Below are positions 10,099 through 62,340 of a DNA stretch of 64,000 nucleotides, piece by piece. The notes under the pieces were generated by a model that worked only from the letters and a program-made list of their open reading frames with translations, was not told where the DNA came from and searched no databases. The position numbers were made by a program, and so were the translations under genes. Each line of letters begins with the position of its first letter. The stretch's first letter is position 1. Origin of the DNA: an uncultured Desulfospira sp. (lineage in GTDB: Bacteria; Desulfobacterota; Desulfobacteria; Desulfobacterales; Desulfobacteraceae); NCBI GenBank assembly GCA_963663165.1, contig OY760175.1, positions 2,656,001 to 2,720,000 of the forward strand, given 5' to 3'.

Positions 10099-13000
10099 CT
10101 ATTGGTTATTTATTTTTGCAGCCTGGGCCAAAGAAATAAAACCGTTTACTTTTCCAACCGTTTTTTTTGCGTCATGCCCGATATGGATCAGCACCGGGAC
10201 AATGAACAGGGTAACAGGGGTGGCAAACAACTCCCCAAAGGCCAGGGATATGGCAGCCGGAATCAGGTACTGGGCCTGCTCCGATGTTTCGGACAGCAGG
10301 GGCATAAGTCCGCACACCGTGGTCAGCGTGGTTAAGACAATGGCCCGAAACCGGCTGTTTCCTGCGTTTATCAATGCCTGAAAACAGTTTGGGAAATCGT
10401 CGGTTACATCGTTGAACCGGGATAAAAGCACCAGGCTGTCATTGACCACGACGCCCGTGACAGCCAGCATGCCGAAAAAAGAGAGCACACTTAAATCAAA
10501 CCCCATGGCCCAGTGCCCGGCCACAGCGCCCACAAACCCGAATGGAATGACAGACATGATCACAAGGGGCTGCCAATAGGATTTCAAGGGTACGGCCAAA
10601 AGGGCGTAGATCAGGATCAGGATCATGGCAAGGGCTCGGATCATGCCCCCTTTCATCTCACCCATATCCTCAAGTTCGCCGGCCGCTTTGATGGTCAGCT
10701 GGGGGTAAAGCTGCTGTAACCGGGGGATGATATCCTTTTTAATGAGCTTGATTGCCTCTTCGGCGCTGATAACTTCTTTATCCAGGTTCGCCTCGACCTG
10801 GGCCACCCGCTTTTTATCCTGGCGCACAATGGCTGCCGGCACATACCCGGATTCAATGTCGGCCACCAGGGACAAGGGAACCCATTGCCCGTTCCGGGTG
10901 CGGATCCGGGTGGAAAGAAGATCCCGGATATACCGGCACCGGTCTTCCCCGTATCTGACCTTTACCTTAACCTCTTCGGTGCCCCGCTGGATGCGCTGGA
11001 TTTCAAGGCCCCCAAAGGCGTTTCCGATCTGGCCGGCAAGGTCTGCGGTGGTAAGGCCCATATGCCTGGCTTCGGGCTTGAGATGCAGCCGAAGCCTTGG
11101 GTTACCCTGGTCCAGGTCGTCCCGGATATCATGGACACCCTTGATCTTGGCAAAGTCAGCCTCAAACCGGGCCACCGCATCCGTGAGCACGGCAGAATCC
11201 CGCGCACCAAGCTCAAGCACGAATCCGCCGCCTGTTTCAAATGATCCGCTGAAGGTCAGTGTTTCCACCCCTTCCAGGGTGCCCACCCGTTTGCGCCAGC
11301 GCTTCAAGGTCTCCAGGGTGTCAAGCTGCCTTTGGCTTTCCGGCTGCAGTTCCGCGTAAATTTCTGCATTGTTGGAACCTGTGACCGCCGTCATGATCCG
11401 GGCAATGGGCGGTTGTTCCGTGTTCAACTCAGCCATGGCCTCTTTATTGAGCGCTTCTGCCTGTTTTTCAATAAAGGAGATATGGTCCGCCGTCAGATCA
11501 GACGGGGAACCGGAACGGGTTTTCAGGGTCACGGTGATGATCTGGCCAGGCACCTGGGGGAAAAAAACCGTTCTGATCCAGCCGTTTGATATCAGGCCGA
11601 TGCCGCACACGGCAACCGTGACAAGGAATACCAGGGTGGCATAACGGTGGTTAAGGGTGGTTTTAAGCATTGGTTGGTAAATGCGGGTGTTGACAAAATC
11701 CATCAGGCCCGAGGCTTTTTTCTGCACAAAGGCCCACACCCTGTGTACAACCCCTTTGGATTTTTGTGTGCCTGGTGCGTCCTGGTTCATGGAGATGGCA
11801 GCCAGGTGAGCCGGCAGCACAAGCTTGCTTTCCAGCATGGAGGCAATGACCGAAATGATCACCACCACAGAGAAACTGGCAAACAATTTGCCGATTTCAT
11901 TTTCAATGAGCAGCAGGGGATAAAAGGCCGCCACCGTGGTAAAACAGCCAAACACCGTGGCTGTGGAGACCCGGTGCACCCCTTCAATGGTGCCTGTGAC
12001 AGGATCAGGGTTTTGCTTTCTGACCTCAAACACGCTTTCGCCCACCACAATGGCGTCATCCACCAGGATGCCCAGCACAATGATCATGCCGAATGTGGTG
12101 ATATCGTTTAAAGAGTAGTTCAAAAACCGCTCGCCCATAAGGGACAAAGCCCCTGCCAGGGAGATGGGAATACCCATGGCCACCCACACCGCAAGTTTAA
12201 CATTGAGAAACAAGGCCAGCAGCACAAACACAATTAACAGCCCCTGCCAGGCATTGGAGGCCAGAAGTTTGAGCCGGTCCTTCATGTAGGTGGCCTGCTC
12301 CGCCCAGATGTCGATCTTAATGCCCCTGGGCAGACCCGGACGGATTTTTTCAATCACATCCCGGGCCACCTTGTTCACGGCCATAAGATCGCCTTTCTGT
12401 CCGGTGTAGATCAGCATGCCCACGGACGGTTTGCCCTGGAACCGTGCAAAAAAAGGTTCTGTTTCAAATCCGTCCACAACCGTTGCAATGTCTTTTACCA
12501 GAAGCTGTGTGCCGTTGCTTAAGGTACGCACACCGATATTGGAAAATTCTTCAAAGGAGAACGCTTTTTTATCCGCCCGGATCACCACCTTGCCGCTTTT
12601 GCTTTCAATGGTGCCGGTGGCGTAATCCAGGGAGGCCTGGTTAATGGCGGATGCCACCTCTTCCAGGGTCATGCCGTAGGAGCGAAGCTTGTCCATATCC
12701 ACTTCAATGCGGATTTCATAGGGTTTTTGACCAAACACCTCTATGCGGGTCAGCATGGGATGGGAAAGCAGCTCCTCTTTGACCTGCCTTGCCGTCTGTT
12801 GCAGCGTGATTTCGTCACTATCCCCATACACCTGGACGATCAGGCCCATGACATTAAACTCATCCCTGGAGACCACCGGGCGCTCGGCCCGGTCCGGCAG
12901 ATTGTAAATGCTGTCCACCCGGGACTGGATCTCATTTTGGAACCGGTCCATATCAAATTTGGGTGTTTTGCGGATGCTGACCGTGGACAGGCCTTCATAG

Positions 13001-13254
13001 GATGTGGATGAAATTTTTTTTACGCCGGGCATGCCTTCCAGGGCATTTTCAATTTTCCGGGAAACGCCCCGGTCCACCTGTTCGGCACTGGCGCCGGGAT
13101 AGGCTGTCTGTACGGTGATACTGTTCACCGGCAGGGCGGGAAACCCTTCAATGCGAATGGAAAACAAGGTGAAAAACCCTGCAATCAGCACAAGAATCAT
13201 CAACAGGTTGGCAGCCACGGGATTCCTGGTGAACCAGGCAGATAATGCATGCAT
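10099..13254 (-). CDS. RND efflux permease (AcrB/AcrD/AcrF family)
   Basis: 1051 aa, NPVAANLLM, TM4 GILVDDAIVVGE, RFRAIVLTTLTT. Confidence 0.95.
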   Translation of the reverse strand: MHALSAWFTRNPVAANLLMILVLIAGFFTLFSIRIEGFPALPVNSITVQTAYPGASAEQVDRGVSRKIENALEGMPGVKKISSTSYEGLSTVSIRKTPKFDMDRFQNEIQSRVDSIYNLPDRAERPVVSRDEFNVMGLIVQVYGDSDEITLQQTARQVKEELLSHPMLTRIEVFGQKPYEIRIEVDMDKLRSYGMTLEEVASAINQASLDYATGTIESKSGKVVIRADKKAFSFEEFSNIGVRTLSNGTQLLVKDIATVVDGFETEPFFARFQGKPSVGMLIYTGQKGDLMAVNKVARDVIEKIRPGLPRGIKIDIWAEQATYMKDRLKLLASNAWQGLLIVFVLLALFLNVKLAVWVAMGIPISLAGALSLMGERFLNYSLNDITTFGMIIVLGILVDDAIVVGESVFEVRKQNPDPVTGTIEGVHRVSTATVFGCFTTVAAFYPLLLIENEIGKLFASFSVVVIISVIASMLESKLVLPAHLAAISMNQDAPGTQKSKGVVHRVWAFVQKKASGLMDFVNTRIYQPMLKTTLNHRYATLVFLVTVAVCGIGLISNGWIRTVFFPQVPGQIITVTLKTRSGSPSDLTADHISFIEKQAEALNKEAMAELNTEQPPIARIMTAVTGSNNAEIYAELQPESQRQLDTLETLKRWRKRVGTLEGVETLTFSGSFETGGGFVLELGARDSAVLTDAVARFEADFAKIKGVHDIRDDLDQGNPRLRLHLKPEARHMGLTTADLAGQIGNAFGGLEIQRIQRGTEEVKVKVRYGEDRCRYIRDLLSTRIRTRNGQWVPLSLVADIESGYVPAAIVRQDKKRVAQVEANLDKEVISAEEAIKLIKKDIIPRLQQLYPQLTIKAAGELEDMGEMKGGMIRALAMILILIYALLAVPLKSYWQPLVIMSVIPFGFVGAVAGHWAMGFDLSVLSFFGMLAVTGVVVNDSLVLLSRFNDVTDDFPNCFQALINAGNSRFRAIVLTTLTTVCGLMPLLSETSEQAQYLIPAAISLAFGELFATPVTLFIVPVLIHIGHDAKKTVGKVNGFISLAQAAKINNQ

Positions 13255-13258
13255 GATG

Positions 13259-14443
13259 TTATCCTTTCTCCTTTTGTCCGGGCTGGACTAAAAGCCCTGC
13301 GGCAAAGCTTGCATTGGGTGACACGGCAACCTGTAAAGAATCCTGGCCGCTGTTTTCAGGCATATTAATGTAGACCACGCCATTGCCGTAAAATACAGGC
13401 TGTGCATGAACCGGTTTCAGCCGGTTTTGGTCATCCACAAACCAGACCACCCCCTGTTTGGTGAGTGCGGTTTCCGGCAGGCACAAAAGCCCTGTAACCT
13501 TTTGGCCAATGATTTCGGCGCGCACAAAGGCACCGGGCAAAAGGGGCGGGTTCTGGGCCATGGGGTGAGCCACCTGGAGAAACAAGGTCTGCAGCCTGGA
13601 TTCAGAATCAAGCCGTTGTCCGTTTCGCACCACCCGGGCCTGCCAGGAGACATTTTGCTGGGTGGATACCAGGCGGGCGGCAACGCTTTTGTCCGGACTG
13701 CCGGAAGACAGGTTCATGCCTAAAAGGGCCAGTTGTTCCGCAGAAACATGGATGCCCACCTCGGCTGTGTCAATGCCGTACAGGGTGAAGATCTCATCCC
13801 CGGTTAACAGGGTCTCCCCGGGATTGACATGGCGCTCAAGGATGACGCCGTCAAAGGGGGCGCAGATTTTGGTGTATGACAACCGGGTTTCGGAAAGCGC
13901 AAGTGTTTTGCCCGCGGCGTTCAGCCCTGCCCGGGCGCAGTTGAGCTGGGGCTTGCGCAGCACAAGGTCAGACGCAGGCGATCCTTTTATGCCGGAGCGC
14001 TCCCAGTTTCGCAACGCTTCTTTGGCTTCGCGTTCCTCCTTGAGCAGCTCAACCTTTGCCTGGGCCACCCGGTTTTTATCCTCGCTGACCTGGGCCTGGT
14101 AGGCGGTCTCTTCTATTTTTACAAGGAGTTCGCCTTTTTTAACCCTGACCCCTGGCTGAAGCTTTGGATTCAGGTAGACAATGGGGCCGTCCACCCGGGC
14201 TTTGATGGTGGATTGCCACAGGGGCTTTACCTCGCCAAGGGCACTGATCCGCGCAGGATAGGCAGCACCTGCCACCTTTTGAACCGTTACGGGCATGCCC
14301 GTAAGCTGCACGGCCGTGTCCTCCTGCAACTGCCCCTTGGCAGGCTTTGATTCCAGGAACACAAAAGCCCCTGCCGTGCACACCAGGGCGGTCACAATAA
14401 AAACCGCCCATTTCCCCGTAAGTATTTGAATTATTTTTTTCAT
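13259..14443 (-). CDS. RND periplasmic adaptor (membrane fusion protein)
   Basis: Single TM, lipoyl/hairpin motifs (VKKGELLVKI, ICAPFDG, LLPGAFV); start ATG 14443 with AAGGAG RBS. Confidence 0.92.
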   Translation of the reverse strand: MKKIIQILTGKWAVFIVTALVCTAGAFVFLESKPAKGQLQEDTAVQLTGMPVTVQKVAGAAYPARISALGEVKPLWQSTIKARVDGPIVYLNPKLQPGVRVKKGELLVKIEETAYQAQVSEDKNRVAQAKVELLKEEREAKEALRNWERSGIKGSPASDLVLRKPQLNCARAGLNAAGKTLALSETRLSYTKICAPFDGVILERHVNPGETLLTGDEIFTLYGIDTAEVGIHVSAEQLALLGMNLSSGSPDKSVAARLVSTQQNVSWQARVVRNGQRLDSESRLQTLFLQVAHPMAQNPPLLPGAFVRAEIIGQKVTGLLCLPETALTKQGVVWFVDDQNRLKPVHAQPVFYGNGVVYINMPENSGQDSLQVAVSPNASFAAGLLVQPGQKEKG

Positions 14444-14515
14444 ATATAAACTCCTTGTAAACAATCAGCTTTTGTCAAATTTTCACAGCAACGCCGCAGC
14501 CGGGTGAGTCCGGGT

Positions 14516-15922
14516 TCAAATGCTTTTGCCTATGGCGATTGCCAGATCCACCCGGTTGCTCAGCCGGTCGGCCCGGGCCTGGTTCAGTTGCAGTTTCACC
14601 GAGATCTCCTGCTCTTTGGCAATGAGCAGCGTCTGGATATTGTCCAGGCCCTGGCGATACCGGTCCACAAAGTAACGGCTGCTGTTTTCAGACTCAATGG
14701 AAGCGATTTCAAGGGCCTTTGTCTGATTTGCCAGCTCCTTTTCCAGGGTGAGTGCATTTTCTATTTCGGCAAATGCCTGCAGCACAATGGCATGAAGGTC
14801 CTGGATGGCGGCATCCGCCTCAAGGTGACCGGCCCGGGCTTCATCCCGCAGGCGTCCCCCCTCAAACAGCGGCTGGAACACAGATCCTAAAAGTCCCCAA
14901 CAGGTTGTGGCACTGCCGATATCCGACAGCCGGGTCCCGGACCGGAACAGTTCGCCGGACAGGGTGACCCCGGGAAGCCTGGCCTTGTCCGCAGCCCGGG
15001 CCTGATTTCGGGCAGCGTCAACCCGGGCAAGGCCTGCCCGGATATCCGGCCGGTTTAAAAGAACCGCTGCCGGCGTATCCAGCGCCGGCAGGGCAAGGGC
15101 GGGCCAGTCCCGGCCCCGGGACAATTGTCCCTGTGGATATCGGCCAAGAAGGACTTCAAGACAGCGAATAGAATTGGAAAGATCTGCCTCTCTGGCGCTT
15201 AGATCTGCTTTGGCCACCTGGGTCCGGGTTCTGGCTGCGGCATATTCGTCCAGGCTGCCAATGCCGTCCTGGTACCGGTGGATCAAAATATCTTCAATCT
15301 GCTGTAAAACCGAAATACGCTGTGTTTCAATGGCTTTTGCCCGGCGGGCCGACACCTGCCGTATCCATGCCTGGATCACCCGGGCAGCCAGAAGGTCCCG
15401 GGCCTTTTGAAAATCCTGCTCTTTGGCCTGGACCTCCTGGCTTGCGGCCTGGTATTGGTCAGCCAGCCGGCCCCACAGATCGATTTCCCAGCTCACATTG
15501 GCTGTGATTTTATGGCTGGTCTGGGTGTCGCGTTCAAATGTAGTGTAATTGTACTCCTGGTTGCTTTTTCCACTGGAAAATCCTGCAAAAAGCTTTGGAA
15601 GTCGCCCGGATGCAGGGCCTGAAAGAAGATACTGTGCGGACCCAAGCCGGAATGCCGCAGCTTTTATATCCGGGTTGTTTTCCAGGGCTTCGTCCACCAG
15701 GCTGCGAAGCTTGTTGGAATCAATGATGTCCAGAAGCCCTGCGGTAATGGGCAGGGCTTCCGGGCCAGAAGATGTGCCGAATGTGCCGGGAATATCCCGG
15801 GGAAGCACAGCCGGAGCCTTGGAGAAAGTTGAAGCGCAGCCCTGCAGCCACAATGCCGGGATAATAATTGCCAGCCCAAGGAGTAATCGTATTTTATGTA
15901 TCGTGCTTTTCATCCTGATCAT
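14516..15922 (-). CDS. Outer-membrane efflux lipoprotein (TolC/NodT family)
   Basis: Lipobox LQGC, ALENNPDI, SWEIDLWGRL, LLNRPDIRA. Confidence 0.93.
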   Translation of the reverse strand: MIRMKSTIHKIRLLLGLAIIIPALWLQGCASTFSKAPAVLPRDIPGTFGTSSGPEALPITAGLLDIIDSNKLRSLVDEALENNPDIKAAAFRLGSAQYLLSGPASGRLPKLFAGFSSGKSNQEYNYTTFERDTQTSHKITANVSWEIDLWGRLADQYQAASQEVQAKEQDFQKARDLLAARVIQAWIRQVSARRAKAIETQRISVLQQIEDILIHRYQDGIGSLDEYAAARTRTQVAKADLSAREADLSNSIRCLEVLLGRYPQGQLSRGRDWPALALPALDTPAAVLLNRPDIRAGLARVDAARNQARAADKARLPGVTLSGELFRSGTRLSDIGSATTCWGLLGSVFQPLFEGGRLRDEARAGHLEADAAIQDLHAIVLQAFAEIENALTLEKELANQTKALEIASIESENSSRYFVDRYRQGLDNIQTLLIAKEQEISVKLQLNQARADRLSNRVDLAIAIGKSI

Positions 15923-16568
15923 TGCTCACCCCAAAACGCTTAGTCCATGAAACAGCATCAAACCCGCAAAAAAAAACTGCCCTTTAAACGATCCCATCAT
16001 TTATCTTCCTTGGTGCCTCCTTTGTTGCTTTTTTAAAATCAATGATCGGATAGTAAAGGATTTTAAAACACAGGTCTGTCTGCTTTGTGTACCCAATTGT
16101 ACCCAATTGTACACAGCCCTTTGCGCTGCAAAACCAGGGGTACAAAACCGGCCGCTTTTTACAGCAGCCCAATACACAAATCACAGCCGGATGTTATATA
16201 ATTATGAAAATGCAATGTGCGTTAAGAAGAAAACCTATCTTGCGATTTTTGGGGGGGTGCTAAGATTCAAAAAATGTAACGCGGATACGCCAAATCAGCT
16301 ACAAAATAATATAACGGGAAGATATCCCGCCGCTTTACCCCGCCAATAAAATATATAAACCTTACCTCGCTTACCCCGCAGTTATCCCGCCGCGAATTTT
16401 TTCGAAAAAAGCTTTGCCAATCTATTTGGAAGAAGTCAATACTTCCTTGATAAAAAAGGCTCGAAGCTGCAACTTCGAGCCTTCAATGTAGACATCCGAG
16501 TAGGTTACGGAAGCCACACCACCGTTTTTATCTAACCACGGCTTCCGTAATTTAGCAAGAGCGGAAGC

Positions 16569-16958
16569 ATGGAAATCGTTTTATTAAAACGTATCGAGTG
16601 TAAGCGATGTTTCCAAATTTTCTATGTGTGCCGCAGTTGCTGGCGGGGGCAGGCATATTGCTGTCAAGAATGCCGCCAGGAGGCCCGCAAAGAAGCGCAC
16701 TGCAAAGCTCAAAAAAAATATCGACAAACGCCAAAAGGTAAAGAGGCCCACCGTCGTCAAGAAAAAAACAAAAGATTACGTCAAGCTGAAAAAACCATGG
16801 ATGATACATCTACTATACCCGGTGTAACCCATGATAGTGTCTCTCCCAAGCCATTATGTTCCGGCCCCTGTTGCCATTTTTGTGGGAAAATTGGTTGGGT
16901 TGTAGAGCATTTTCCCTGGCGCGGATATGCAAAACGACCTGTAAGGGCCAATCAATGA
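16569..16958 (+). CDS. Cys-rich basic hypothetical protein (putative Zn-binding)
   Basis: CKRC, CRSC, CCQEC, basic helix, C-terminal CHFCG. Confidence 0.75.
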   Translation: MEIVLLKRIECKRCFQIFYVCRSCWRGQAYCCQECRQEARKEAHCKAQKKYRQTPKGKEAHRRQEKNKRLRQAEKTMDDTSTIPGVTHDSVSPKPLCSGPCCHFCGKIGWVVEHFPWRGYAKRPVRANQ

Positions 16959-16982
16959 AACATCTTAATGGAGGATAAGACA

Positions 16983-17372
16983 ATGAAAAAAGAAATATTG
17001 ACAGGCCATTGCAACAAAATGAAAAACAGATTTTCATCCCGGGAGCTATTTAAACTGAGAAACGATATCCCTGTGGATATGCTGATCCGTGACCATTTAC
17101 AGATTCCATCCAAAATCAGGGATGGTGTTTTCCGGTTTTTATGTCCTTTGTGCAATGAGTTTCAAACCGCTGTAAATCCAGCCACCAATCTGGCCAGGTG
17201 TTTTCGGTGTGAGAAGAATTTCAACACCATTGATCTGGTCATGGAAGTCAAGGGATATGGATTCAGGGACAGTGTATTTTTTTTGAAAGAACTGGATGCG
17301 GTCTCCTATGTCCCGGCAAATGTGTTGACGTCTCTTGCCACCGGTATCGGTCAACCCTGGCCTGGGAAGTAA
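16983..17372 (+). CDS. Stand-alone primase-type (CHC2-like) zinc-finger protein
   Basis: FLCPLC..LARCFRCEKNFNTIDLVMEVKGYGFRDSV resembles the DnaG zinc-binding domain; GGAGGA RBS. Confidence 0.75.
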   Translation: MKKEILTGHCNKMKNRFSSRELFKLRNDIPVDMLIRDHLQIPSKIRDGVFRFLCPLCNEFQTAVNPATNLARCFRCEKNFNTIDLVMEVKGYGFRDSVFFLKELDAVSYVPANVLTSLATGIGQPWPGK

Positions 17373-17374
17373 AG

Positions 17375-17929
17375 ATGAAACGGCTGCTTCAACTGGAGAC
17401 CCTTATTGCCCGTAATCAGGAGAGTTTCTATAAGATCGGTCAGGCGTTAAAAGAAATCCGTGACAGCCGCCTGTACAAACTGGCCCTGTTTGAGACATTT
17501 GAAGCATATACCAGGGAACGGTGGGATATGGGCAAGTCCCATGCATACCGCCTGATCAAATCTTATGAAGTGATCTATAATTTGTCCCCAATTGGGGACA
17601 AAACACCTGCCAATGAATCCCAGGTCCGGCCTCTTGCTCAATTGGACCCCCTGGACCAGCGCAACACCTGGAAGGCAATCATAGACAACGGTATTGAGTT
17701 AACCGCACGGAACATCAAAAAATTTGTAGAGGCCCAAAAAATACCCCCGGAGAACAAACCGGATTTGGCGGAACGGATTTCGGCTGAATACATGGCAGCC
17801 GTACATGCAATGATTGAACAGGTGCGGGTGGCCCAGCATGATCATTGGCAGCAAACGTCCCGGCAGGCTGCATTGTTGTGGCACAGGGTGATCCGCGAAA
17901 AAATTTTATCAAAAGGGGCAAGACAATGA
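17375..17929 (+). CDS. Hypothetical helical protein (DUF3102-like, phage/MGE type)
   Basis: IGQALKEIRDSRLYK..TFEAY..WDMGKSHAYRLI, PANESQVRPL; stop overlaps transposase ATG. Confidence 0.7.
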   Translation: MKRLLQLETLIARNQESFYKIGQALKEIRDSRLYKLALFETFEAYTRERWDMGKSHAYRLIKSYEVIYNLSPIGDKTPANESQVRPLAQLDPLDQRNTWKAIIDNGIELTARNIKKFVEAQKIPPENKPDLAERISAEYMAAVHAMIEQVRVAQHDHWQQTSRQAALLWHRVIREKILSKGARQ

Positions 17930-19593
17930 AGAACCTGAGCCTTGATGACCGTTTTTATTTGCTGCTCCATAAAAAAATCATGAATAAAACCGGATCAGCC
18001 AAAAGAAGGTCCAAAAAATATTACAAAGACCAGTACAGGAAAACCGGCATTATCCCGACGCCCCTTCTACTGGTTGAAAAAGGGATTATGGACGGCCGCA
18101 AATGCAGCGGCCGGCCCCGGTCCATAGATGAACAAACCAAAAGGCGGTTTATCGAAATGGTCAAGGCCTCCTGTGACCCGTCATCCCAGGGGTTTATTTT
18201 TATTACCCGAAAAGCCAGAACCATTAAAAATTACCACTATTGGCTTGAAAGAGAATTGGGAAAAACCATCAGCCTTCCGGCACTCAGGCGATGTGCCCAA
18301 AGGGAAGGCCTTAAATTTTACCTGGAAAAAGAAGATTTTGAAGAAAATGCCCCGGTGAAAAACGCATTCAAGCCTGTTCCGGTGTTTGGCCTGATACAGG
18401 TAGACGGTTGCAACTTTCGATATTTAAAAATCAAAAATGAGGCTGGCCACTGGCAAAAACCCCAAGTCATTGAAACGTTTGATACCGGTTCCCGGTACAT
18501 GTTTGAACTTGATGCCTATTTCGATGAAAGCAGCTTAAGCTCAGTGGATTTGTTTAACCGGTTTTTGCTTTCCACCCCATTTCCCCAGAAGAAAGTCCGG
18601 TTCAGGCCGGATAACGCCACAGGATTTGTAAATCTCAAAAGAGTCATCAACGCCTTGAATATAAAACATTCCGTTCCCGGAGGATTTTATCTGGCGCCGG
18701 ATTTTTCAAGGGTAAGTGCCCCCAGGGACAAGGCCCATCTTGAGTCCTCCCATCGCAGTCTTCATAATTTTGAAATCCGAATCATCAAGGCGTTTGAAGA
18801 CAGGATTGTAAAGACCGTTCCAGGGGTTATCTTCAATAATAAGAAAAAAGAAAAAATCACTGTGACACTCCTTGATATTACACTCCGGGATTTAAGACAC
18901 AGCCCCCTGATAAAAGAATACCGCCACGAACATAACCACACCAAACATTATTTTAGCGAAAATGGAAAGATCAGTGCATGGGTTCCGGCACAAAAGCTGG
19001 AAGAATTTTTATCAAGGCAAGCCGATATCCTTACCTTTTCACCGGATGAGGTGCAGGAATATATGAAGTATGGCTACAGGAAAATAAAAGCCACTGTATC
19101 TAACAAAAGAACCATTCGCCATGACAACCGGATCTATTGTGTAACCAGTGGTACAGACCGGTTCAGCAGGCATAAAAGTACACCGGTGCAAATATCAGTA
19201 TATAAGGGCAAGCTGTTTATTTTTGAACGGGGGGAAGACGGCATACTATTGGGCGAAGCCCTTGCCACAAAGCCGTTTGACAAACCACCTGACCCAAAAT
19301 CTGTACCAGTGGCCCCGGATGAACTCGACATGATGATCATTTTTCTGGAAAAGCACAACATGGCCGTCGACCGGCGAGTCTTAATTGAAGCTTATCATAG
19401 CGGCCTCACTCTGGCCCGGGCTCAACAAGTGCTTCATCATAATCAATCCAGGTACAAGAATTATATGAAAAAGATGCGGCAACCTGAAACACAGAAAAAG
19501 CAGGCGGTATTCAATGCCTTTATGCTTGACTGCCGGAAATTGATCAATACAAACCATGTGGCCACGTATGCATCCTGCGGAGATTTAACATGA
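17926..19593 (+). CDS. DDE transposase/integrase (IS21/Mu/Tn7-like)
   Basis: Candidate triad QVDG, RPDN, KAHLES; DTGSRY; SGRPR; ATGA-coupled start at 17926. Confidence 0.85.
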   Translation: MKNLSLDDRFYLLLHKKIMNKTGSAKRRSKKYYKDQYRKTGIIPTPLLLVEKGIMDGRKCSGRPRSIDEQTKRRFIEMVKASCDPSSQGFIFITRKARTIKNYHYWLERELGKTISLPALRRCAQREGLKFYLEKEDFEENAPVKNAFKPVPVFGLIQVDGCNFRYLKIKNEAGHWQKPQVIETFDTGSRYMFELDAYFDESSLSSVDLFNRFLLSTPFPQKKVRFRPDNATGFVNLKRVINALNIKHSVPGGFYLAPDFSRVSAPRDKAHLESSHRSLHNFEIRIIKAFEDRIVKTVPGVIFNNKKKEKITVTLLDITLRDLRHSPLIKEYRHEHNHTKHYFSENGKISAWVPAQKLEEFLSRQADILTFSPDEVQEYMKYGYRKIKATVSNKRTIRHDNRIYCVTSGTDRFSRHKSTPVQISVYKGKLFIFERGEDGILLGEALATKPFDKPPDPKSVPVAPDELDMMIIFLEKHNMAVDRRVLIEAYHSGLTLARAQQVLHHNQSRYKNYMKKMRQPETQKKQAVFNAFMLDCRKLINTNHVATYASCGDLT

Positions 19594-20252
19594 AGGCAGA
19601 TTTTATCAGTGACAAACGAAGGGTATCATACCTGAGCGCCACTTATAGCCGGATCTACCGGGGCCGGAGCGTACTCATTGAGGGAGATTTTGGAGCGGGA
19701 AAAACCAGGTTTTTAAAACTGCTTCGTCCCAAAAAACTTCATGCCGTATGGGTAGAGTCCCTGTTCAACATACACGAAACCCTGGCATCCATACTCAAAG
19801 AATTGAACTATGACACCACAGCCACATATCGCAGAACTCCCCAGTACCTGAAAATGATCTGCAACCTGTCCAACTGCTTTATTATTATTGATGAGGCCAA
19901 TGATCTGGATACCAGGGTCTGGCCATATCTTAAGCGGATCATTGATGCCGGTGTTCCTATTGTTTTTGCAGGGCTTCCAAAGGTCAGGACCTATTTGATT
20001 CGCAATCACCCTGATATCCTCAGCCGGTTGAAAACCCTGATTTTATATCCCATAGAGGTTGAGGGCTTTATCGAACAATATAAAGATATCCAGCAGGAAG
20101 CCGTTGAGCAAATTTATATGGCGGTCAAAGGCGACATGCGTAAATTTAAAGAAATCTGTACTGACTGCCGGGACAAGGCAAAGGAATTGAACCACCAATT
20201 TGTTGACATTAATCTTGCCCTGGAGTTTATATCTGACCTTCCTCCCCAGTAA
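19590..20252 (+). CDS. AAA+ ATPase transposition helper
   Basis: Walker A GDFGAGKT, Walker B IIIDEAN, ILSRL; ATGA-coupled to the transposase. Confidence 0.88.
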   Translation: MKADFISDKRRVSYLSATYSRIYRGRSVLIEGDFGAGKTRFLKLLRPKKLHAVWVESLFNIHETLASILKELNYDTTATYRRTPQYLKMICNLSNCFIIIDEANDLDTRVWPYLKRIIDAGVPIVFAGLPKVRTYLIRNHPDILSRLKTLILYPIEVEGFIEQYKDIQQEAVEQIYMAVKGDMRKFKEICTDCRDKAKELNHQFVDINLALEFISDLPPQ

Positions 20253-20774
20253 TCCCTGAAAAGTAGATCCGTAAAAACAGGCCACTTCTGATTTAACCGG
20301 AAGATGGCCTGTTTATATTTTGACCTTAATTGATTAACGCAATTTTTCGCCTGGATATACCTGTGAAAATCAGGGAACCACAGATTGTTTTTGAATCTTT
20401 TTTGAACCGTTACATTAATTTGCAACTTTCAATATTTTTGACTGCCAACCTAACCTACTAAATTTATATGAAAAACCATTTCTTTTTTGAAATAATGAAC
20501 GAAAAAAAATCCGTTACATTATTTGAATGTGAGCAGGCGGATCTTACGCAAAGTGGTTTCTATCGGCTTACAATCATGGGGGACATCGGGAATACGCCGC
20601 TGACGGTTACCGCTATGACGGGCAACGGGAAGTGTGACCATCCCTTTTTGCTCAAGTTTTCTCAGCATGCTTCGACAGGCCATGTCCTTGAGCAGACCTT
20701 TTTCCGTGCGCCAATCCCAGCGAGCACACAATTCTTTGGATAAACGAGTGCGGTGCCAGGCGGGATTGTCGTTA

Positions 20775-22155
20775 GGGATGTGGTAAAATTAAAACCCACA
20801 ATTCATTCCTCATAGCATGGAATATCAACAGCCCATTTTTCAATCCCTGGAATCCGAATAATTTTGTTTTCTATATTATTCACGGCGGACTTGACCAAAC
20901 GTACCCCTGTCGGGTAAACACCTTTGATTAATTTGACGACAGGATTTTCTCCTTTCCATGTCATTGTTCGACATAGACCGAGAACCTTTTCAATTTTGTT
21001 CAGCAATTCGCCTTTCCAATGATTTTCCAAAACACCCCAAACTCGCTCTATTGGGTTGTATTTACTGTGGTACGGGGGATAGTACACCAAACTAATATTT
21101 ACAAATGCTGATTTGGCAAAGTCCACGAGGCGACTAATGAATTGGCTCCTTCGGCTACTATTTTCCGGCCCATTATCAAGATTGATCACCAGTGTATGTG
21201 GGGCGAATCTTGCGTTCAAAGAAGGCCAGAGTGATTCCAGCGCATCAATCATGAAATCAGAGGTGATGTTGCTTTCAGTGAAGTACATATAATTTTCATC
21301 CAGAGCAGGTATGTTGATACCGAAAAGTTTCAAAAGGGAATCGGGTTTAAAATCATGGTCCGCCGCTTTAAGATTGCAACGACTATATCCGCCTCGGGAA
21401 TAAGGCCCTATTTTAATAGTGGCTTTTGCGTCCATTGAGATACGTAAAACGCCATCTGTTTCATCGGCTAGTTGGTTTGTCCTATGCACATATTCAAAAA
21501 TGATGTCTGTTTCAGGAATTTTTTTTTTACCTTGGCTTTGGCGACCTTCTTCAGTTTAAAACCCAATTTATTCATTATGGTGGATAGAGTCCGTACTGTT
21601 GGCATATTCTCAGGGTCATATCCCATGTCGTCAACTAATCGACGGAATACTTCATTCGCAGATATTGGGGAATATAAATTCTGGGTACGGAATGTAGGAT
21701 CAGTCTGACATATAGGGTTTACAATACGAGTTATGTCCTCTTTTAAATTCGGAAAATGTTCTAAACACGATTTCCGGCCTCGTCCGGAAAAATTATCAAC
21801 ACAGGTAACTCCGCTTTCTATTTCCCGTCGCCCTTTGATTATTGTTTTCCGATCCCAACCCAGTTCTCTTTCAGCCTTTAGTTGTCCGCCGTGCCCCATA
21901 AGGGAGACAACGCGTGCCATGAATTGGCGCCGTTCATGGCCTTTTAATTTGCTTCGAGTGGTATTCAGAAAATCCTTTAGTGGTGGCGTTAATTCCGATA
22001 TAGTTTTGGGTAAATTGTGCTTAGAATGATCAAACATGGTCCTCCTGTATTTTTTATGTAATCTTCCATGTTGACCATAAACTATCGATTCCATGTTGTC
22101 TATAGAAATCAGAATTCAGACTATGGAATTGTGGATATTAATTTTTCTGAGGCCC
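20775..22155 (-). mobile_element. ISAzo13-family insertion sequence
   Basis: 3-bp duplication TTA at 20772-20774 and 22156-22158; ends GGGCCTCAGAAAAATTAA / GGGATGTGGTAAAATTAA. Confidence 0.88.
20803..22094 (-). CDS. ISAzo13 transposase in two ORFs joined by a -1 shift at an A10 run near 21519-21528
   Basis: ISMDAKA, LDNGPEN, YYPPYHSKYNPIER; KKIPETD read in the -1 frame. True start may be downstream of 22094. Confidence 0.85.
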
Positions 22156-22332
22156 TTAATCAAATGGCGTATCGTTTGTATATCAACTTCTGAAAATTCA
22201 CGTCCTTGAATGGTTAAAGTCCTGCTCATGCAAATCTATATAACCTTTCATGAGCCAGGAGTCCAGCTTTTTTTGGGAGGGCAGAGTATTCAATGCAGCA
22301 TGAAAAACGGAAAAATTGGATACATGTCAGTT

Positions 22333-22570
22333 CATGCCACTAAATGGGATTGCACCCCAGCGCAGGTGCAAAAACTGCCACGATCTATACATGCCGGATT
22401 CCCGCCATTTGAAACGACAAAAGTTCTGCAAAAAACCGGAATGCAAAGGCGCCAGCAAAAAACACAGTCAGCAAAAATGGCTGAATAAACCAAAAAACCG
22501 GGATTATTTCTCAGGATCAGAACATGTGACCCGTGTCCGGCAATGGCGCCAGGATAATCCCGGTTATAAG
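22333..22570 (+). pseudogene. Truncated Cys-rich MGE-associated hypothetical gene
   Basis: RRCKNC..QKFCKKPECK..RDYFSG..RVRQWRQDNPGY, cut at the palindromic element at 22571; start uncertain. Confidence 0.6.
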
Positions 22571-22711
22571 GGTCATGGGGGTCAAACCTGGTCATGGGGG
22601 TCAAACCTTGATTATTTCCTTTTAACATTAGCCGCATCTATCATATCCAAGCCTGCGCATAATGCTATAATCAAGGTTTGACCCCTTTCCCTCTGCTCCC
22701 TTTCCCTCTGC
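22571..22711. repeat. MITE/REPIN-like element with perfect 19-bp inverted repeats and tandem duplications at both ends
   Basis: GGGGTCAAACCTTGATTAT 22597-22615 vs ATAATCAAGGTTTGACCCC 22667-22685. Confidence 0.85.
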
Positions 22712-22905
22712 CAGACGCAGGCCCATTGAATAGTTTGTAAGCAGGAAAACCCGGTAGCGCAGTTTACGCGTTGCGCCGATCAGATGTTCCACCTCGCCGG
22801 GAGTCAAAATATCCGGGATGGTTTTAACTTTGGGCGGCTTGACAATATTCAACCAATTCCATTCCTTTTTTAAAACGAATTTCCAGAAATGCTGAAGTCC
22901 CAGAC
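22705..22905 (-). pseudogene. Internal fragment of a tyrosine recombinase (type often paired with IS91-like transposases)
   Basis: LQHFWKFVLKKEW..KPPKVKTIPDILT..YSMGLRLAE, truncated at both ends. Confidence 0.7.
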
Positions 22906-23063: not shown

Positions 23064-24197
23064 ATGGAACGATATCTCACAAAATATATTAAGGAAGATT
23101 TAGATAAAAAAATCATCCTGCTGACTGGGCCACGCCAAACCGGAAAAACAACGCTTTCAAAAATGTTGGGGAATGATTTTGATTATTTCAATTATGACAA
23201 TGTTGATGACAGAATAGGCCTTAAAGAAAGATCCTGGGACAGGTCAAAGCCCCTGGTTATCTTTGATGAACTGCACAAGCAGAAAAATTGGAAATCATGG
23301 CTTAAGGGAATTTATGACAAGGAGGGCATCCCGCCGTCACTGCTCGTTACAGGCAGCGCCAGGCTAGATACGTATAAAAAAGTTGGGGATTCCCTGGCAG
23401 GGCGATTTTTTCAATTTAGGTTGCACCCTTTGGATCTTAAAGAAATCAACACTTATTTGAAACCAGAAGACCCTGAAGCTGAACTAGACAAACTATTATC
23501 GATTGGCGGCTTTCCTGAACCTTTTTTAAATGGAACAAACCGTTTTTATAACCGTTGGAAAAGATCTCATCTTGATATCATTTTAAAACAGGATCTCATT
23601 GACCTTGAGAATGTTCAGCAAATCACTCAGATTGAAACCTTGATTCAATTGTTAAAACACCGGGTGGGAAGCCCCGTTTCATACAGCTCCCTGGCCCAGG
23701 ATCTGCAATGTTCAGACAAAACTGTAAAAAGGTGGTTGACGATACTTGAAAACATGTATGTACTTTTTAAGGTACCGCCCTTTCACAAAAATATCGCCAG
23801 GGCTATTCAGAAAGCGCCTAAATTTTACTTTTATGATACGGGGCAGGTCTTAGGTGAACATGGGATTAAGCTGGAAAATGCAGTAGCCTGCGCCATTCAA
23901 AAAGAGTTGCATTTCCGGGAGGATTGCCTGGGAGAAGAAGGAAAACTGTATTATGTGAAAAATAAGGACGGCAAAGAGATTGATTTCTGTATTTCAAAAA
24001 ACAACACCCCTTCACTGTTAGTGGAGGTTAAGTGGAACGACAATAACTTGAGTCCAAATTTTGATTTATTTAAAAAATTCTTCCCTGAAATTAAAATGAT
24101 CCAAGTTTCTAAGAAACTTAACAGGGAAAAGACTTTTCCAAACGGGGCAGCAATCAGGCTTGCATCAAAATGGTTGTCAAAATTAACCTTTTTCTGA
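23064..24197 (+). CDS. AAA_14 + DUF4143 ATP-binding protein
   Basis: GPRQTGKT, IFDELH, VTGSA, SLAGR, GGFPE, PKFYFYDTG, EIDF..LVEVK. Confidence 0.92.
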   Translation: MERYLTKYIKEDLDKKIILLTGPRQTGKTTLSKMLGNDFDYFNYDNVDDRIGLKERSWDRSKPLVIFDELHKQKNWKSWLKGIYDKEGIPPSLLVTGSARLDTYKKVGDSLAGRFFQFRLHPLDLKEINTYLKPEDPEAELDKLLSIGGFPEPFLNGTNRFYNRWKRSHLDIILKQDLIDLENVQQITQIETLIQLLKHRVGSPVSYSSLAQDLQCSDKTVKRWLTILENMYVLFKVPPFHKNIARAIQKAPKFYFYDTGQVLGEHGIKLENAVACAIQKELHFREDCLGEEGKLYYVKNKDGKEIDFCISKNNTPSLLVEVKWNDNNLSPNFDLFKKFFPEIKMIQVSKKLNREKTFPNGAAIRLASKWLSKLTFF

Positions 24198-24205
24198 AAA
24201 GTGCT

Positions 24206-24254
24206 TTTCAACAAACCAAATACACACGGGCAAGCCGGTGATGTTGGAATTAGC
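24206..24254 (+). other. Degenerate attC-like site after the ATPase gene
   Basis: TCAAC-AAAC-CAAATACAC..CCGGTGATGTTG..ATTAG; imperfect arms. Confidence 0.35.
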
Positions 24255-24306
24255 TTTTAAATCAAATCTCTTGACGAACGCATCAAAAAAATGCATATAG
24301 ATACAT

Positions 24307-24507
24307 ATGAGAACTACACTTAACATAGACGACAAAATCTTGGAGAAAGCCGCGATTTTAACAGGGATCAAAGAAAAAACATCCTTGGTTCATCTTGGCC
24401 TTGAAGCGTTAATTGCACTTGAGAGCAGTAAACGCCTTGCAATGCTTGGTGGTACAGAAGAGGCTCTAAAGAACATTCCCCGTAGAAAATCCACAGGGGA
24501 AGCATGA
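24307..24507 (+). CDS. vapB: VapB-family antitoxin
   Basis: MRTTLNIDDKILEKA..EKTSLVHLGL..RLAMLGG; ATGA overlap with PIN gene. Confidence 0.88.
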   Translation: MRTTLNIDDKILEKAAILTGIKEKTSLVHLGLEALIALESSKRLAMLGGTEEALKNIPRRKSTGEA

Positions 24508-24866
24508 TCCTTGTAGACACGTCGGTATGGATTGATCATTTCCGAAAAAGTAACGCAAACCTGCAATCTCTCCTTATGAAAGGACGTGTTGTATGCCATG
24601 AGCTTATTATTGGCGAATTGGTTTGTGGAAATTTTCAAAATCGAAAAGAAATTATAAGCTTATTACAAGCTTTGCCCCAAGTCCCTCAAATAAGTTTTGA
24701 CGAGTATTTATATTTTGTCGAGAAAAGGAGTCTTTTCGGCAAAGGTATAGGATTCATTGATATTCATTTGTTGGCTTCGGCAAGATTGTCACAATCGAAG
24801 CTTTGGACTCTTGATAAAAGGCTTAATAAACAGGGTGTTGACCTTGAAGTAGATTATAAAATTTAA
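24504..24866 (+). CDS. vapC: VapC PIN-domain toxin
   Basis: ILVDTSVWID, IIGEL, IDIHLLASA, LWTLDKRL. Confidence 0.92.
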   Translation: MILVDTSVWIDHFRKSNANLQSLLMKGRVVCHELIIGELVCGNFQNRKEIISLLQALPQVPQISFDEYLYFVEKRSLFGKGIGFIDIHLLASARLSQSKLWTLDKRLNKQGVDLEVDYKI

Positions 24867-60260: not shown

Positions 60261-60743
60261 TACATCTGCCTTTCAATATTCATTTTTCATGGCACTCCGA
60301 ACTGTAGTTATCTGTAGGAGCAAACGCACCCGGGAAGGCCCCGCAAAGCACAGCTCCACGGGGCAAATACCTCTAATAATGGACCGTACCTGTAGCATTA
60401 TTCTCGATCAACCACGGGGCCGATTGATTATACAGTTTCTGGTTCGATGATTGCGCCATCATGCAACCGCTGAGTATGCGGATTCACTGCGTCTGCTCCA
60501 CACCCCGGGCAGGTCAGGCTACTTCCTTCCCAGTCCGGCCCCCACTCTTCCCATGAACGGGCTTTAAATTTCGGCAGGAGCTTGAACATATTGCCCCGGG
60601 GCTTCTGGTCCGCGCTGAACTCTCTTGTCAGAGAATAAAAAACCTCCCCGCAATTATGGCATTTATGTTGCGACTTTTTTTTGTAGCGAGATTTTCTTCT
60701 ATAAAAAGTTCTAAATGAGTTATTTTCTTTGGATATAGTTTTT

Positions 60744-61169
60744 CTACTTTGCTTCTTCCCTATATTTCTTTGCTTTTAAAAGGAAGCGTTCAACAGTTTC
60801 CGGATCAAAACCCGGCATTGTCCGGGCAAAATCTGCGGCTTTTTGATAGTATTCTCCCGCTTCATGCTTTTTTCCCTGAGCTTCATAGACCTGTCCCAAC
60901 CTGTGAAAGCCGTCAATCTGATTTGGATATTCATGCAATAATCTCTTTGATACAGCTTCTGCCTCGTCGAATTTGTTTTCATCGATCAGATCAATCACAC
61001 TGTTTGAAAGCAGATCCAATTCCGTGTAAACTGGTGTAAACCCGGCAGGATAGGGCTTGGGTTGAGTTCCCGCTGACTGCAACGACAAACAACACTTCTT
61101 ATATTTCTTACCGCTGCCGCAAGGGCATGGTGTATTGCGACCGATCTTTGCCATGGGAAAATGTTTCAT
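60744..61169 (-). CDS. SEC-C motif + TPR protein
   Basis: [41 protein letters not shown]. Confidence 0.85.
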
Positions 61170-61198
61170 ATTTTGAATTTTAACGCAAGGTTAAAGTC

Positions 61199-61807
61199 GT
61201 GCAGCTCCGATTCGCCACCGACATTCCTGTTGAACAATATATAGAGGAGGAGGCATGGAAAGATGCAAAACTGGATCGGTGCCCGTTACATCCGGAAGGT
61301 GGCTGCAAATTTGCCAGGCATGGGACCTATTGCAGAAAGTATCCCGACGGTGCAAAAATCGCCCGGTGGTATTGTCCGGATGGCAGGACCACCTTCGGGC
61401 TGTTGCCCGATTGCCTGTCCTCACGTCTGCCAGGGACACTGATGGAGGCGGAAACGGTCATCAATCAGATCGAAGCAGCACCAAGCCAGGAGGCCGCAGC
61501 AGACAATATGCGTCCAGATATCGGCCTGCCTGGTGTCTTGCGATGGATGAGGCACAGACTGTTTTTGATTCATGTAAGTTTGATTTTATTAATCGACCTG
61601 ATTCCGTCCTTATCCAATGATGGTCAGGCAACCTTATCATCATTGAGATCTGCACTTGGGGTTGAGTTTGTTTTACCCCATCTCCGGGAACTTGCCGCTT
61701 CACATTTGGATATCCTGCCACCGCCGTTAGGGTTTGGCCCTCGCCCTCAAAAAAAACATCATGGAAAAAGCCGGTTCCAACAACAAACGGGGCCTGATCC
61801 CCCCTGA
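61199..61807 (+). CDS. Cys/His-rich MGE-associated hypothetical protein
   Basis: CPLHPEGGC..HGTYCRK..RWYCP..LLPDCL. Confidence 0.7.
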   Translation: MQLRFATDIPVEQYIEEEAWKDAKLDRCPLHPEGGCKFARHGTYCRKYPDGAKIARWYCPDGRTTFGLLPDCLSSRLPGTLMEAETVINQIEAAPSQEAAADNMRPDIGLPGVLRWMRHRLFLIHVSLILLIDLIPSLSNDGQATLSSLRSALGVEFVLPHLRELAASHLDILPPPLGFGPRPQKKHHGKSRFQQQTGPDPP

Positions 61808-61854
61808 GAAAAAGGGTAAATTGCCTTTAACGATCATTTCAAGGAGGCAATGCC

Positions 61855-62340
61855 ATGGAGACCGGACAAAATAAAGCCAAAAATCGGAATCAAAAGCCCC
61901 AACGCCGTTTTCGTGCGTCCATTGCAAAAAATCCCATAGATCCCTGCCGCATCAGAAAAATTGCAGGAAGCTTTGCTTTTATCGAGCACCGGTTCCTGCG
62001 GGACGGATTCTGGGCAAGCCTGGATCATCATCAGCTCCTGCTGTACCTGTTTTTGATTATCGTGGCGGATCGTCATGGGCTGTCCTATTACGGCTATGAT
62101 AAAATCTGCACCCTGCTCAGGATTTGTGTTGATGACTACATCCTTGCCAGGAATGCCTTGATTGACAAGAACCTGGTCGCATTTGACGGCAACCTTTTCC
62201 AAGTATTGTCCCTTCCGGAAAGAGTGGCTCTGCCCTCAGCAGCCCCCCTTCAAAGCCAAAAAGACATGGAACTGCACGATCCGGCAACCATCCGCAGCCT
62301 TGTCCTGCAATCTTTTGGAGGCAGCCATGATGGAAGTTGA
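61855..62340 (+). CDS. Winged-helix-like MGE hypothetical protein
   Basis: AGGAGG RBS; SFAFIEHRFL, LLYLFLIIVADRHGLSYY, ARNALID. Confidence 0.7.
   Translation: METGQNKAKNRNQKPQRRFRASIAKNPIDPCRIRKIAGSFAFIEHRFLRDGFWASLDHHQLLLYLFLIIVADRHGLSYYGYDKICTLLRICVDDYILARNALIDKNLVAFDGNLFQVLSLPERVALPSAAPLQSQKDMELHDPATIRSLVLQSFGGSHDGS

Follow-up and report, generated by a model that had tools for sequence, protein, structure and literature searches.

The window analysed here is a stretch of 64,000 nucleotides of contig OY760175.1 from an uncultured Desulfospira sp. (GenBank assembly GCA_963663165.1, positions 2,656,001 to 2,720,000). It carries a transposon with TG...CA ends and five open reading frames, ORF1 to ORF5 (Table 1). 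An earlier reading of the letters (the original prediction) had described an intact transposon with 24-bp terminal inverted repeats (21/24), subterminal copies at both ends and five co-directional, tightly spaced ORFs, the last three coupled by ATGA, and this description is borne out. The repeats, 88% complementary over 24 nt (21/24) and the longest of the 129 inverted pairs in 15800-21000, were found again at the same coordinates together with their subterminal copies, and the site AATANTGTAAC occurs twice at each end (left, 16269 and 16304; right, 20524 and 20420). The gene layout is confirmed in the sequence, with ATGA overlaps between ORF3 and ORF4 and between ORF4 and ORF5; the start of ORF2 is more likely to be 16983, which follows a GGAGGA at 16970.

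Table 1 Features of the transposon, in coordinates of the window
Feature	Position	Strand	Remarks
Whole transposon, TG...CA	16258..20535	+	4,278 bp; based on six identical genomic copies with exact boundaries and a single contig in run X1
Left terminal inverted repeat and first putative transposase site (16269-16281)	16258..16281	+	
Second left-end putative transposase site	16304..16316	+	35 bp from the first
Five TAYCCCGC-like repeats with AT-rich spacer (the array)	16323..16390	+	spacing 13, 27, 9, 11; predicted ORF2 binding site
Leader travelling with ORF1	16456..16568	.	11-bp hairpin 16456-16483 and two alternative pairings of 16540-16548; predicted RNA control element
ORF1, slot 1	16569..16958	+	129-aa Cys-rich protein with basic helix, 8 invariant Cys; exchangeable
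ORF2, slot 2	16968..17372	+	free DnaG-type zinc-binding domain, C4 ligands; alternates with HTH_36 protein
ORF3	17375..17929	+	184-aa ParB/KorB/Noc-type helix-turn-helix (HTH) DNA-binding fold without CTPase domain; fixed core gene
ORF4	17926..19593	+	555-aa DDE transposase (D160, D229, E273), TnsB/MuA fold
ORF5	19590..20252	+	220-aa MuB/TnsC-type AAA+ ATPase; AAA_22 E 4e-7, phrog_296 E 1e-11
Second right-end putative transposase site	20408..20420	-	104 bp from the first
Right terminal inverted repeat and first putative transposase site	20512..20535	-	

Copies, junctions and distribution

A search of the whole genome recovers six copies of the 4,278-bp element with zero differences, and identity among them ends exactly at 16258 and 20535. 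Two sister subfamilies add five further copies with about 77% DNA identity to the element and an unchanged end design. Perfect 6-bp target duplications flank four of the six identical copies and four of the five sister copies, that is, 8 of the 11 family copies in the genome. In run X1 the element assembled as a single 4,278-bp contig at a depth about 7x that of the left flank. That this is a genuine mobile unit is virtually certain, and the family to which it belongs is recently active and apparently uncatalogued.

The copy in the window has no target duplication. On its right it abuts the middle of a repeated gene, found in 12 intact copies elsewhere; the genome contains no orphan left half of that gene, and in run X5 the left flank of the element runs on into DNA absent from the genome assembly. 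This junction has the structure of an adjacent deletion, with which intramolecular replicative transposition and recombination between two copies both fit; junctions of this type occur at 3 of the 11 family copies in the genome. At the 20535 junction of run X5 the right flank is absent from the genome, indicating either an extra insertion site or a strain difference. Elsewhere (L151, G000:C1:6324045-6332628), a sister element and an identical copy of the element lie head to tail, 2 bp apart, and neither has a target duplication.

Searches with ORF4 returned 53 loci among GTDB representatives, with titles mostly from Desulfobacterales, Desulfobulbales and Desulfatiglandales, and 331 matched metagenome stretches, of which 80 were kept. 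From a set of 141 loci, 33 that were viral or too short were left out, leaving 108 non-viral loci with at least 1.5 kb of upstream sequence. Within the host family, 29 of the 151 genomes examined carry the element family; a phylum-wide draw of 301 genomes gave strong matches in 3. It is thus common in sulfate reducers of the host family and may bring deletions. The end design is conserved: among members with both ends (n=48), the left sites lie at offsets 11 and 46 in 43 of 48, and the right sites at 11 and 112-116. At the other loci with both ends (n=57), a 6-bp duplication was found in 17 and a 5-bp duplication in one; most loci without a duplication are short contigs in which collapsed repeats have probably joined unrelated flanks. 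The 25 target duplications show a weak ANCGNN bias, with G at position 4 in 18 of 25. Orientation relative to replication is unbiased, since 6 of the 11 genome copies are co-oriented (p=1.0; origin and terminus from GC skew) and 11 of 20 loci are so by local skew, which leaves the suggested steering of insertion to replication forks unsupported. The view that this is not a described family holds for the full-text literature searched, where no description was found; ISfinder, TnCentral and most subscription papers lay outside that coverage.

The conserved core and its relatives

ORF3, the transposase and the ATPase form a fixed core, with ORF3 present in 107 of the 108 loci (69 of 70 after dereplication). 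ORF4 has no match at cut-off in Pfam or NCBIfam, and the PDB sequence search with the transposase profile returned nothing meaningful; the family is likely to be unannotated in many sulfate-reducer genomes, because it is invisible to the transposase models of both collections. Across 50 sequences D160 is invariant, and D229 and E273 are nearly so. The AlphaFold2 (AF2) model of ORF4 (pLDDT 85.7) retrieves by Foldseek ShTnsB (E 3.5e-13), MuA (1.5e-10), Tn7 TnsB (6e-10) and IstA (1.2e-7), and this fold, with the AAA_22 and phrog_296 matches of ORF5, supports the proposed DDE-plus-ATPase plan of the mobile unit. The broader assignment to an IS21/Mu/Tn7 plan stands for the DDE enzyme and ATPase, with a lineage that is Mu-phage-like, and falls for IS21, as there is no IstA or IstB family match.

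Neither ORF4 nor ORF5 has a match among INPHARED phages or PLSDB plasmids. The nearest relatives of ORF4 outside the family, at 33-38% identity, lie in eight IMG/VR viral contigs (L054-L061). Among the six of these eight that were scanned for ORFs, a Mu-type small terminase was found in four and a Mor-like activator in three, and all four viral-contig transposases tested match phrog_310. Many distant transposase homologues carry an extra N-terminal HTH-like segment and a linker, which are absent from ORF4. In an ATPase tree of 24 rows, the elements (support 99) join two phage contigs (87) within a clade of uncultured phages (97), and MuB and its counterparts in B3, D3112 and RcapMu stand apart from this grouping. 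Because of the fold, the nearest viral relatives and the position in the ATPase tree, phage ancestry is likely, though not proven, and the ORF3-transposase-ATPase core probably descended from a Mu-like phage. The element family would then be a concrete evolutionary link between Mu-like phages and transposons of insertion-sequence (IS) size. The eight viral contigs themselves represent an uncultured Mu-like phage lineage: the transposase of L057 has no match among cultured phages, and their transposases have very long low-complexity linkers, with homologues of up to 1,218 aa.

ORF3 had been called DUF3102-like. That name does not hold, as none of the 69 alignment members matches DUF3102 and the hhalign probability against the DUF3102 protein of B3 (ORF13) is 0.2; the fold is instead of the ParB/KorB HTH type. 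Its AF2 model is all helical (pLDDT 84) and matches Raf1 (Z 10.5), Spo0J (8.9), ParB (8.8) and KorB (7.6), with values ranging down to 6.3 and including SopB; scores of this size against ParB-type domains are modest for a helical protein. The Raf1 match is to the N-terminal domain of this Rubisco chaperone (PDB 6kkn, 8ilb) and lies slightly above the ParB HTH domains. Residues 1-126 align solely to the HTH DNA-binding part of Spo0J, ParB, KorB and SopB, and the N-terminal CTPase domain of ParB was not found in the model. Many ORF3 homologues carry PF01672. In two of the eight viral contigs, the two closest, an ORF3 homologue lies about 1 kb upstream of the transposase. The order in phage B3 is DUF3102-A-B, and the part of the roseophage study available gives ParB-A-B for two roseophages (PMC5488378). 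Since ORF3 homologues precede the transposase in the closest phages and similar orders occur elsewhere, the ORF3-A-B arrangement looks like an inherited phage block. Prediction of an ORF3-transposase complex gave a score of 0.00. An apparent ORF3-transposase fusion (P0021) was discounted: ATPase sequence is present in it too, and it may have arisen by deletion.

The element works like a DDE + AAA+ transposon of the Mu/Tn7/IS21 class, yet by their defining tests it is neither an IS21 element, nor a Tn7-like element, nor a phage. It shares with Mu-like phages (Mu, D3112, B3, RcapMu, the roseophages vB_ThpS-P1 and vB_PeaS-P1, and L054-L061) the MuA-type fold, the MuB-type ATPase and adjacent A and B genes, and like ORF3, a ParB- or DUF3102-type gene precedes A in B3, RcapMu and the roseophages, as far as the available part of the source describes them (PMC5488378). 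It differs from them in its 4.3-kb size, in having no repressor, ner, lysis or virion genes (none of its five ORFs belongs to a PHROG structural family), in a transposase without the N-terminal HTH and in an IS-type front cassette. Against cultured phage transposases there is no detectable match (hhalign probability at most 37%). The element also differs from Mu in its 6-bp duplication; target duplications of Mu and Tn7 are 5 bp. Duplications of 6 bp characterize the Tn552/B3 group, a feature the element shares; aligned to B3 A, ORF4 gives an hhalign probability of 0.6 with a single-sequence template.

With Tn7, Tn5053 and the type V-K CRISPR-associated transposon (CAST), whose proteins are TnsB, TnsC and TniQ, the element has in common a TnsB fold as top match (ShTnsB, Tn7 TnsB), TG...CA ends with repeated sites and an AAA+ helper. 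It differs in that its five ORFs match no TniQ/TnsD, TnsA, Cas or resolvase family and that it has no fixed target site. A TniQ/TnsD target selector defines Tn7-like elements, according to the portion of the literature consulted (PMC10293859); by sequence no ORF has a TniQ family match, ORF2 being DnaG-type and ORF3 ParB-type. The likeness to IS21 extends to the TG...CA ends, the repeated end sites, the DDE enzyme with its ATPase and the multiple copies, and some IS21 elements carry the same front cassette. However, ORF4 has no NF033546 match and an hhalign probability of 0.1 to the genome's IstA; ORF5 matches AAA_22 and not PF01695, which the genome's true IstB matches at E 7e-58; and the ATPase groups with phage proteins on the tree. 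Classification as IS21 is thus ruled out by the IstA/IstB family tests and the ATPase tree. Tn6049 of Cupriavidus metallidurans CH34, compared by description only, is a 3.5-kb, multi-copy element with a GspA/ExeA-like ATPase, and the part of its description available mentions no zinc-domain or ParB-type gene (PMC2864759).

The front cassette, the zinc domain and the repeat array

Upstream of ORF3, two slots are almost always filled, slot 2 in 105 of the 108 loci and slot 1, with an ORF1-type gene, in 98. The occupant of slot 2 is the zinc domain at 88 loci and an HTH_36 protein at 17; for slot 1, at least five unrelated Cys-rich families are represented. Homology is undetectable between ORF1 types A and B, as it is between the zinc domain and HTH_36, and the PDB sequence search with the HTH_36 profile returned nothing meaningful. 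The occupants have been exchanged repeatedly: the transposase tree (92 rows, FastTree, slot labels assigned by hand) requires at least 10 changes in slot 2 and 9 in slot 1. In three close pairs, DNA identity is 90-95% from the start of ORF3 onward and then returns only at the left tip, which locates the cassette crossovers at the start of ORF3.

The same genes serve other mobile elements of this genome. ORF1 is 60% identical to an ORF of an IS21 element and 42% to one of a RIT element; according to the part of the source available, RIT elements are three-gene units (PMC3414803). A pair of ORF1 and HTH_36 heads both the IS21 element (5 copies, with a ParB-like gene recognised by eye) and a RIT trio (8 copies). 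A second RIT (4 copies) begins with an ORF1B-like gene and a zinc domain, and a third (4 copies) with HTH_36. The window element, too, is chimeric, with ORF1 and leader from the HTH_36 type and array and ORF2 from the zinc type. The original prediction had taken the three upstream genes for core machinery rather than cargo, and asked whether homologous transposase/ATPase pairs mostly lack them. They do not, being present in 107, 105 and 98 of the 108 loci. The genes are thus no random cargo and ORF3 is fixed, but ORF1 and ORF2, which are swapped between near-identical transposases and common to IS21 and RIT elements, are not dedicated core machinery.

ORF1 of type A travels with a leader hairpin, which precedes it in all 12 HTH_36 elements, the window element, the IS21 element and one RIT, and is found in none of the 46 type B elements. 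Across 17 sequences the hairpin is 97% paired, with compensating changes at 4 of its 11 pairs; pairing is weaker (65-73%) in the alternative helices downstream. From its sequence, the hairpin may be the end of a minus-strand antisense RNA, as a terminator on that strand, or a protein-binding palindrome. Rfam gave no match for the leader, the hairpin was not flagged as a terminator, and the promoter scan found 1 site against 0.9 expected, so that we claim no antisense promoter.

ORF2 had been described as a CHC2-like zinc finger, which is correct as to family (Pfam CHC2, PF01807, E 8e-7; PDB 1d0q, E 0.0036) and not as to ligands, which are four cysteines (CxxC...CxxC), whereas the host DnaG has CPFH. 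The match to the DnaG zinc-binding domain (PF01807; PDB 1d0q, 2au3) covers about 90 residues. Domains of the ORF2 type differ from DnaG in being free-standing or fused to IS3 transposases, in having C4 and not CHC2 ligands, and in being linked to the array.

In the 61 elements with a recognisable left end, at least three array copies are present in 49 of 49 zinc-domain elements against 0 of 12 HTH_36 elements (by a strict count, 41 of 49 against 0 of 12), and 5 of 5,000 random windows reach three copies. Across seven independent zinc/HTH_36 pairs the array never goes the opposite way (median p 0.03). The spacing is conserved at about 13, 26, 9 and 11 bp, a phasing of roughly one helical turn, and chimeras in which ORF1 has been swapped retain the array (3 of 3 loci, and the window element as well). 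The genome's zinc-domain RIT carries the array, and its three HTH_36 elements do not. In an IS21-like element of Desulforapulum autotrophicum pHRM2a, the zinc gene comes last and the array lies inside both ends, reading inward. The zinc domain is therefore tied to the array across three recombinase systems. The genes of the pHRM2a element (L195:1947-6673, NC_012109.1) encode a hypothetical protein, ParB, an IstA-like protein, an IstB-like protein and the zinc domain. The zinc domain is also fused at the C-terminus of rve transposases in 14 of 27 longer homologues, and 6 of 7 tested pass the IS3 cut-off; these IS3-family transposases (P0279-P0295) carry it via a Pro/Ala-rich linker. A search with the zinc-domain profile returned no viral contig. 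The arrays at both ends of the pHRM2a element and the IS3 fusions argue against mere linkage, and ORF2 is likely to bind the array.

Proposed mechanism and alternatives

Based on these data, we propose that the element is a recently spread mini-transposon made of a fixed, probably phage-derived core and an exchangeable front cassette, in which the zinc domain would aid entry into replication via the array. We put this forward tentatively, its chances as a whole being close to even but short of it. We envisage that the transposase occupies both sites at each end and connects the ends to a target held by the ATPase; insertion would give 6-bp duplications without site or strand targeting and with a weak ANCGNN preference. 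ORF3, a putative site-specific DNA binder, may stand in for the N-terminal HTH that the phage transposase had and ORF4 lacks, and could serve as a repressor or as a factor in assembly. Binding of ORF2 to the left-end array would mark the replication entry point at the strand-transfer intermediate. Given the phage ancestry and the deletion-type junctions, Mu-type replication is the most likely route of movement, and we favour it moderately. Host restart and priming are needed by Mu as well as by IS3-family elements.

For the zinc domain itself, a role as a replication aid is possible, at a little under even chances. In DnaG the zinc domain determines template specificity and can cooperate in trans with the polymerase domain of another primase, as stated in the portion of the source available (PMC2978363). 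For this reason ORF2 could open the left end to priming, and recruitment of host priming, as suggested at the outset, is plausible on indirect evidence. The Aquifex primase triplets CCC, GCC and CGC (PMC2532735) resemble CCCGC, a likeness we do not use as support. Another multi-copy element, of 4.2 kb (L146, G000:C1:5560454-5564660), with 13 full or split matches in the genome, combines a Cys-rich HTH protein, an rve transposase and an AAA_22 ATPase with a complete RepB-type primase (PF16793 and PF22448). More broadly, Mu-derived DDE, IS21, IS3 and tyrosine-recombinase trio elements might share a plug-in replication-entry module, in which the zinc domain binds an iteron-like array and is lent in trans to the host DnaG; the element would then be a Mu-like phage reduced to a virion-less transposon with controls rebuilt from such modules. 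We regard this generalization as doubtful. What is known of how replicative and copy-out transposons pass their intermediate to the replisome comes chiefly from Mu and IS911. If the proposal is true, the element encodes a small factor that has a defined cis site and is exchangeable among four recombinase systems, which would open this hand-over to direct testing by single deletions in a 4.3-kb unit, and the portable zinc-domain/array module is the most test-worthy part of the system.

Several points weigh against this proposal. The node uniting the elements with the closest phages has only 87% SH-aLRT support, the top structural match of ORF3 is Raf1 and not ParB, and adjacent deletions are equally explained by homologous recombination between two copies. 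In the element family the array occupies only the left end (47 of 48 right ends are without it), directly before the operon, as an operator would. Because array and zinc gene sit in one cassette, part of their correlation is linkage, and only seven independent pairs are available; and because HTH_36 elements exist without zinc domain and array, the module is not essential. The locus of one IS3-fusion relative had neither zinc domain nor array, and the zinc ligands of ORF2 are unlike those of DnaG. Helicase binding, moreover, belongs to the C-terminal domain of DnaG, according to the part of the source at hand (PMC2978363).

The operator-like position leads to an alternative that sees the cassette as a portable unit of control: either ORF2 or HTH_36 would act on the array as an operator or Mu-enhancer-like site, ORF1 and the leader RNA would tune expression, and primase ancestry would be incidental. 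The helical phasing of the array, its AT-rich spacer and its place upstream of the operon at the left end only, the covarying hairpin that travels with ORF1, and the loss from the element of the repressor genes and N-terminal HTH of its phage relatives all fit such a unit, which would be compatible with any recombinase chemistry. It accounts less well for the pHRM2a element, whose right-end array lies downstream of all genes, and for the C-terminal fusion to IS3 transposases, which suits action at a transposon end. In addition, both slot-2 alternatives resemble replication-protein domains (PF01807; PF13730, which we take to be linked to replication initiators), and the sister L146 element carries a whole primase. 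On balance we consider the control unit unlikely, although it is the strongest of the alternatives.

The element could also move through a circle, by copy-out/paste-in or cut-and-paste like IS21 or IS3, with the cassette and the ParB-like ORF3 making or keeping the circle. IS21 uses a circular copy-out intermediate, and IS21, IS3 and RIT elements, the partners of the cassette, all use circles. The copy lying 2 bp from a sister element, head to tail, resembles an end-to-end junction; an end-to-end joint of right and left repeats was found in none of 8 contig-only runs, in which contigs drop rare forms. This route is improbable, as the nearest relatives of ORF4 are Mu-like phage enzymes, the fold ranks TnsB and MuA above IstA, and ORF3 has no ParB CTPase domain.

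A role of ORF2, with ORF1, as a TniQ/TnsE-like target selector steering insertion to replication forks has still less in its favour. The transposase fold is closest to TnsB with no TniQ among the ORFs to do that job, and TniQ also contains a zinc finger, according to the portion of the source available (PMC10293859). Nevertheless, orientation is unbiased, near-identical transposase/ATPase pairs use the zinc domain or HTH_36 alike, the same genes serve tyrosine-recombinase trios without an ATPase, and the zinc gene co-varies with internal sequence and not with the target, so that such a selector is very improbable. The slots can hardly be neutral or host-directed cargo (counter-defence or toxin-antitoxin-like addiction) with no movement role: five or more unrelated Cys-rich families in slot 1 would suit cargo, and an antisense-type leader also fits type I toxin-antitoxin control, but few loci leave a slot empty, the order is constant, and the zinc gene goes together with an array near the element's end and also occurs fused to transposases.

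The surroundings of the element contain further mobile DNA. The right flank (20536-20774 and about 20774-22150) is a truncated repeated element with 12 intact genome copies, cut again by an ISAzo13-family element (PF07592) at 20803-22094. Remnants at 22316-22852 include a Cys-rich ORF akin to the type B/R proteins of slot 1, along with a short one that by eye resembles a tyrosine-recombinase fragment and has no Pfam match. By eye, an AAA ATPase gene and a VapB/VapC-like pair follow at 23064-24866, and an RND-type efflux operon occupies the minus strand at 10099-15922. At about 60657-64000 (G000:C1:2716657 onward) lies a RIT trio, with 4 copies in the genome, headed by an HTH_36 gene and, on the opposite strand, by a small ORF that by eye is SEC-C/TPR-like.

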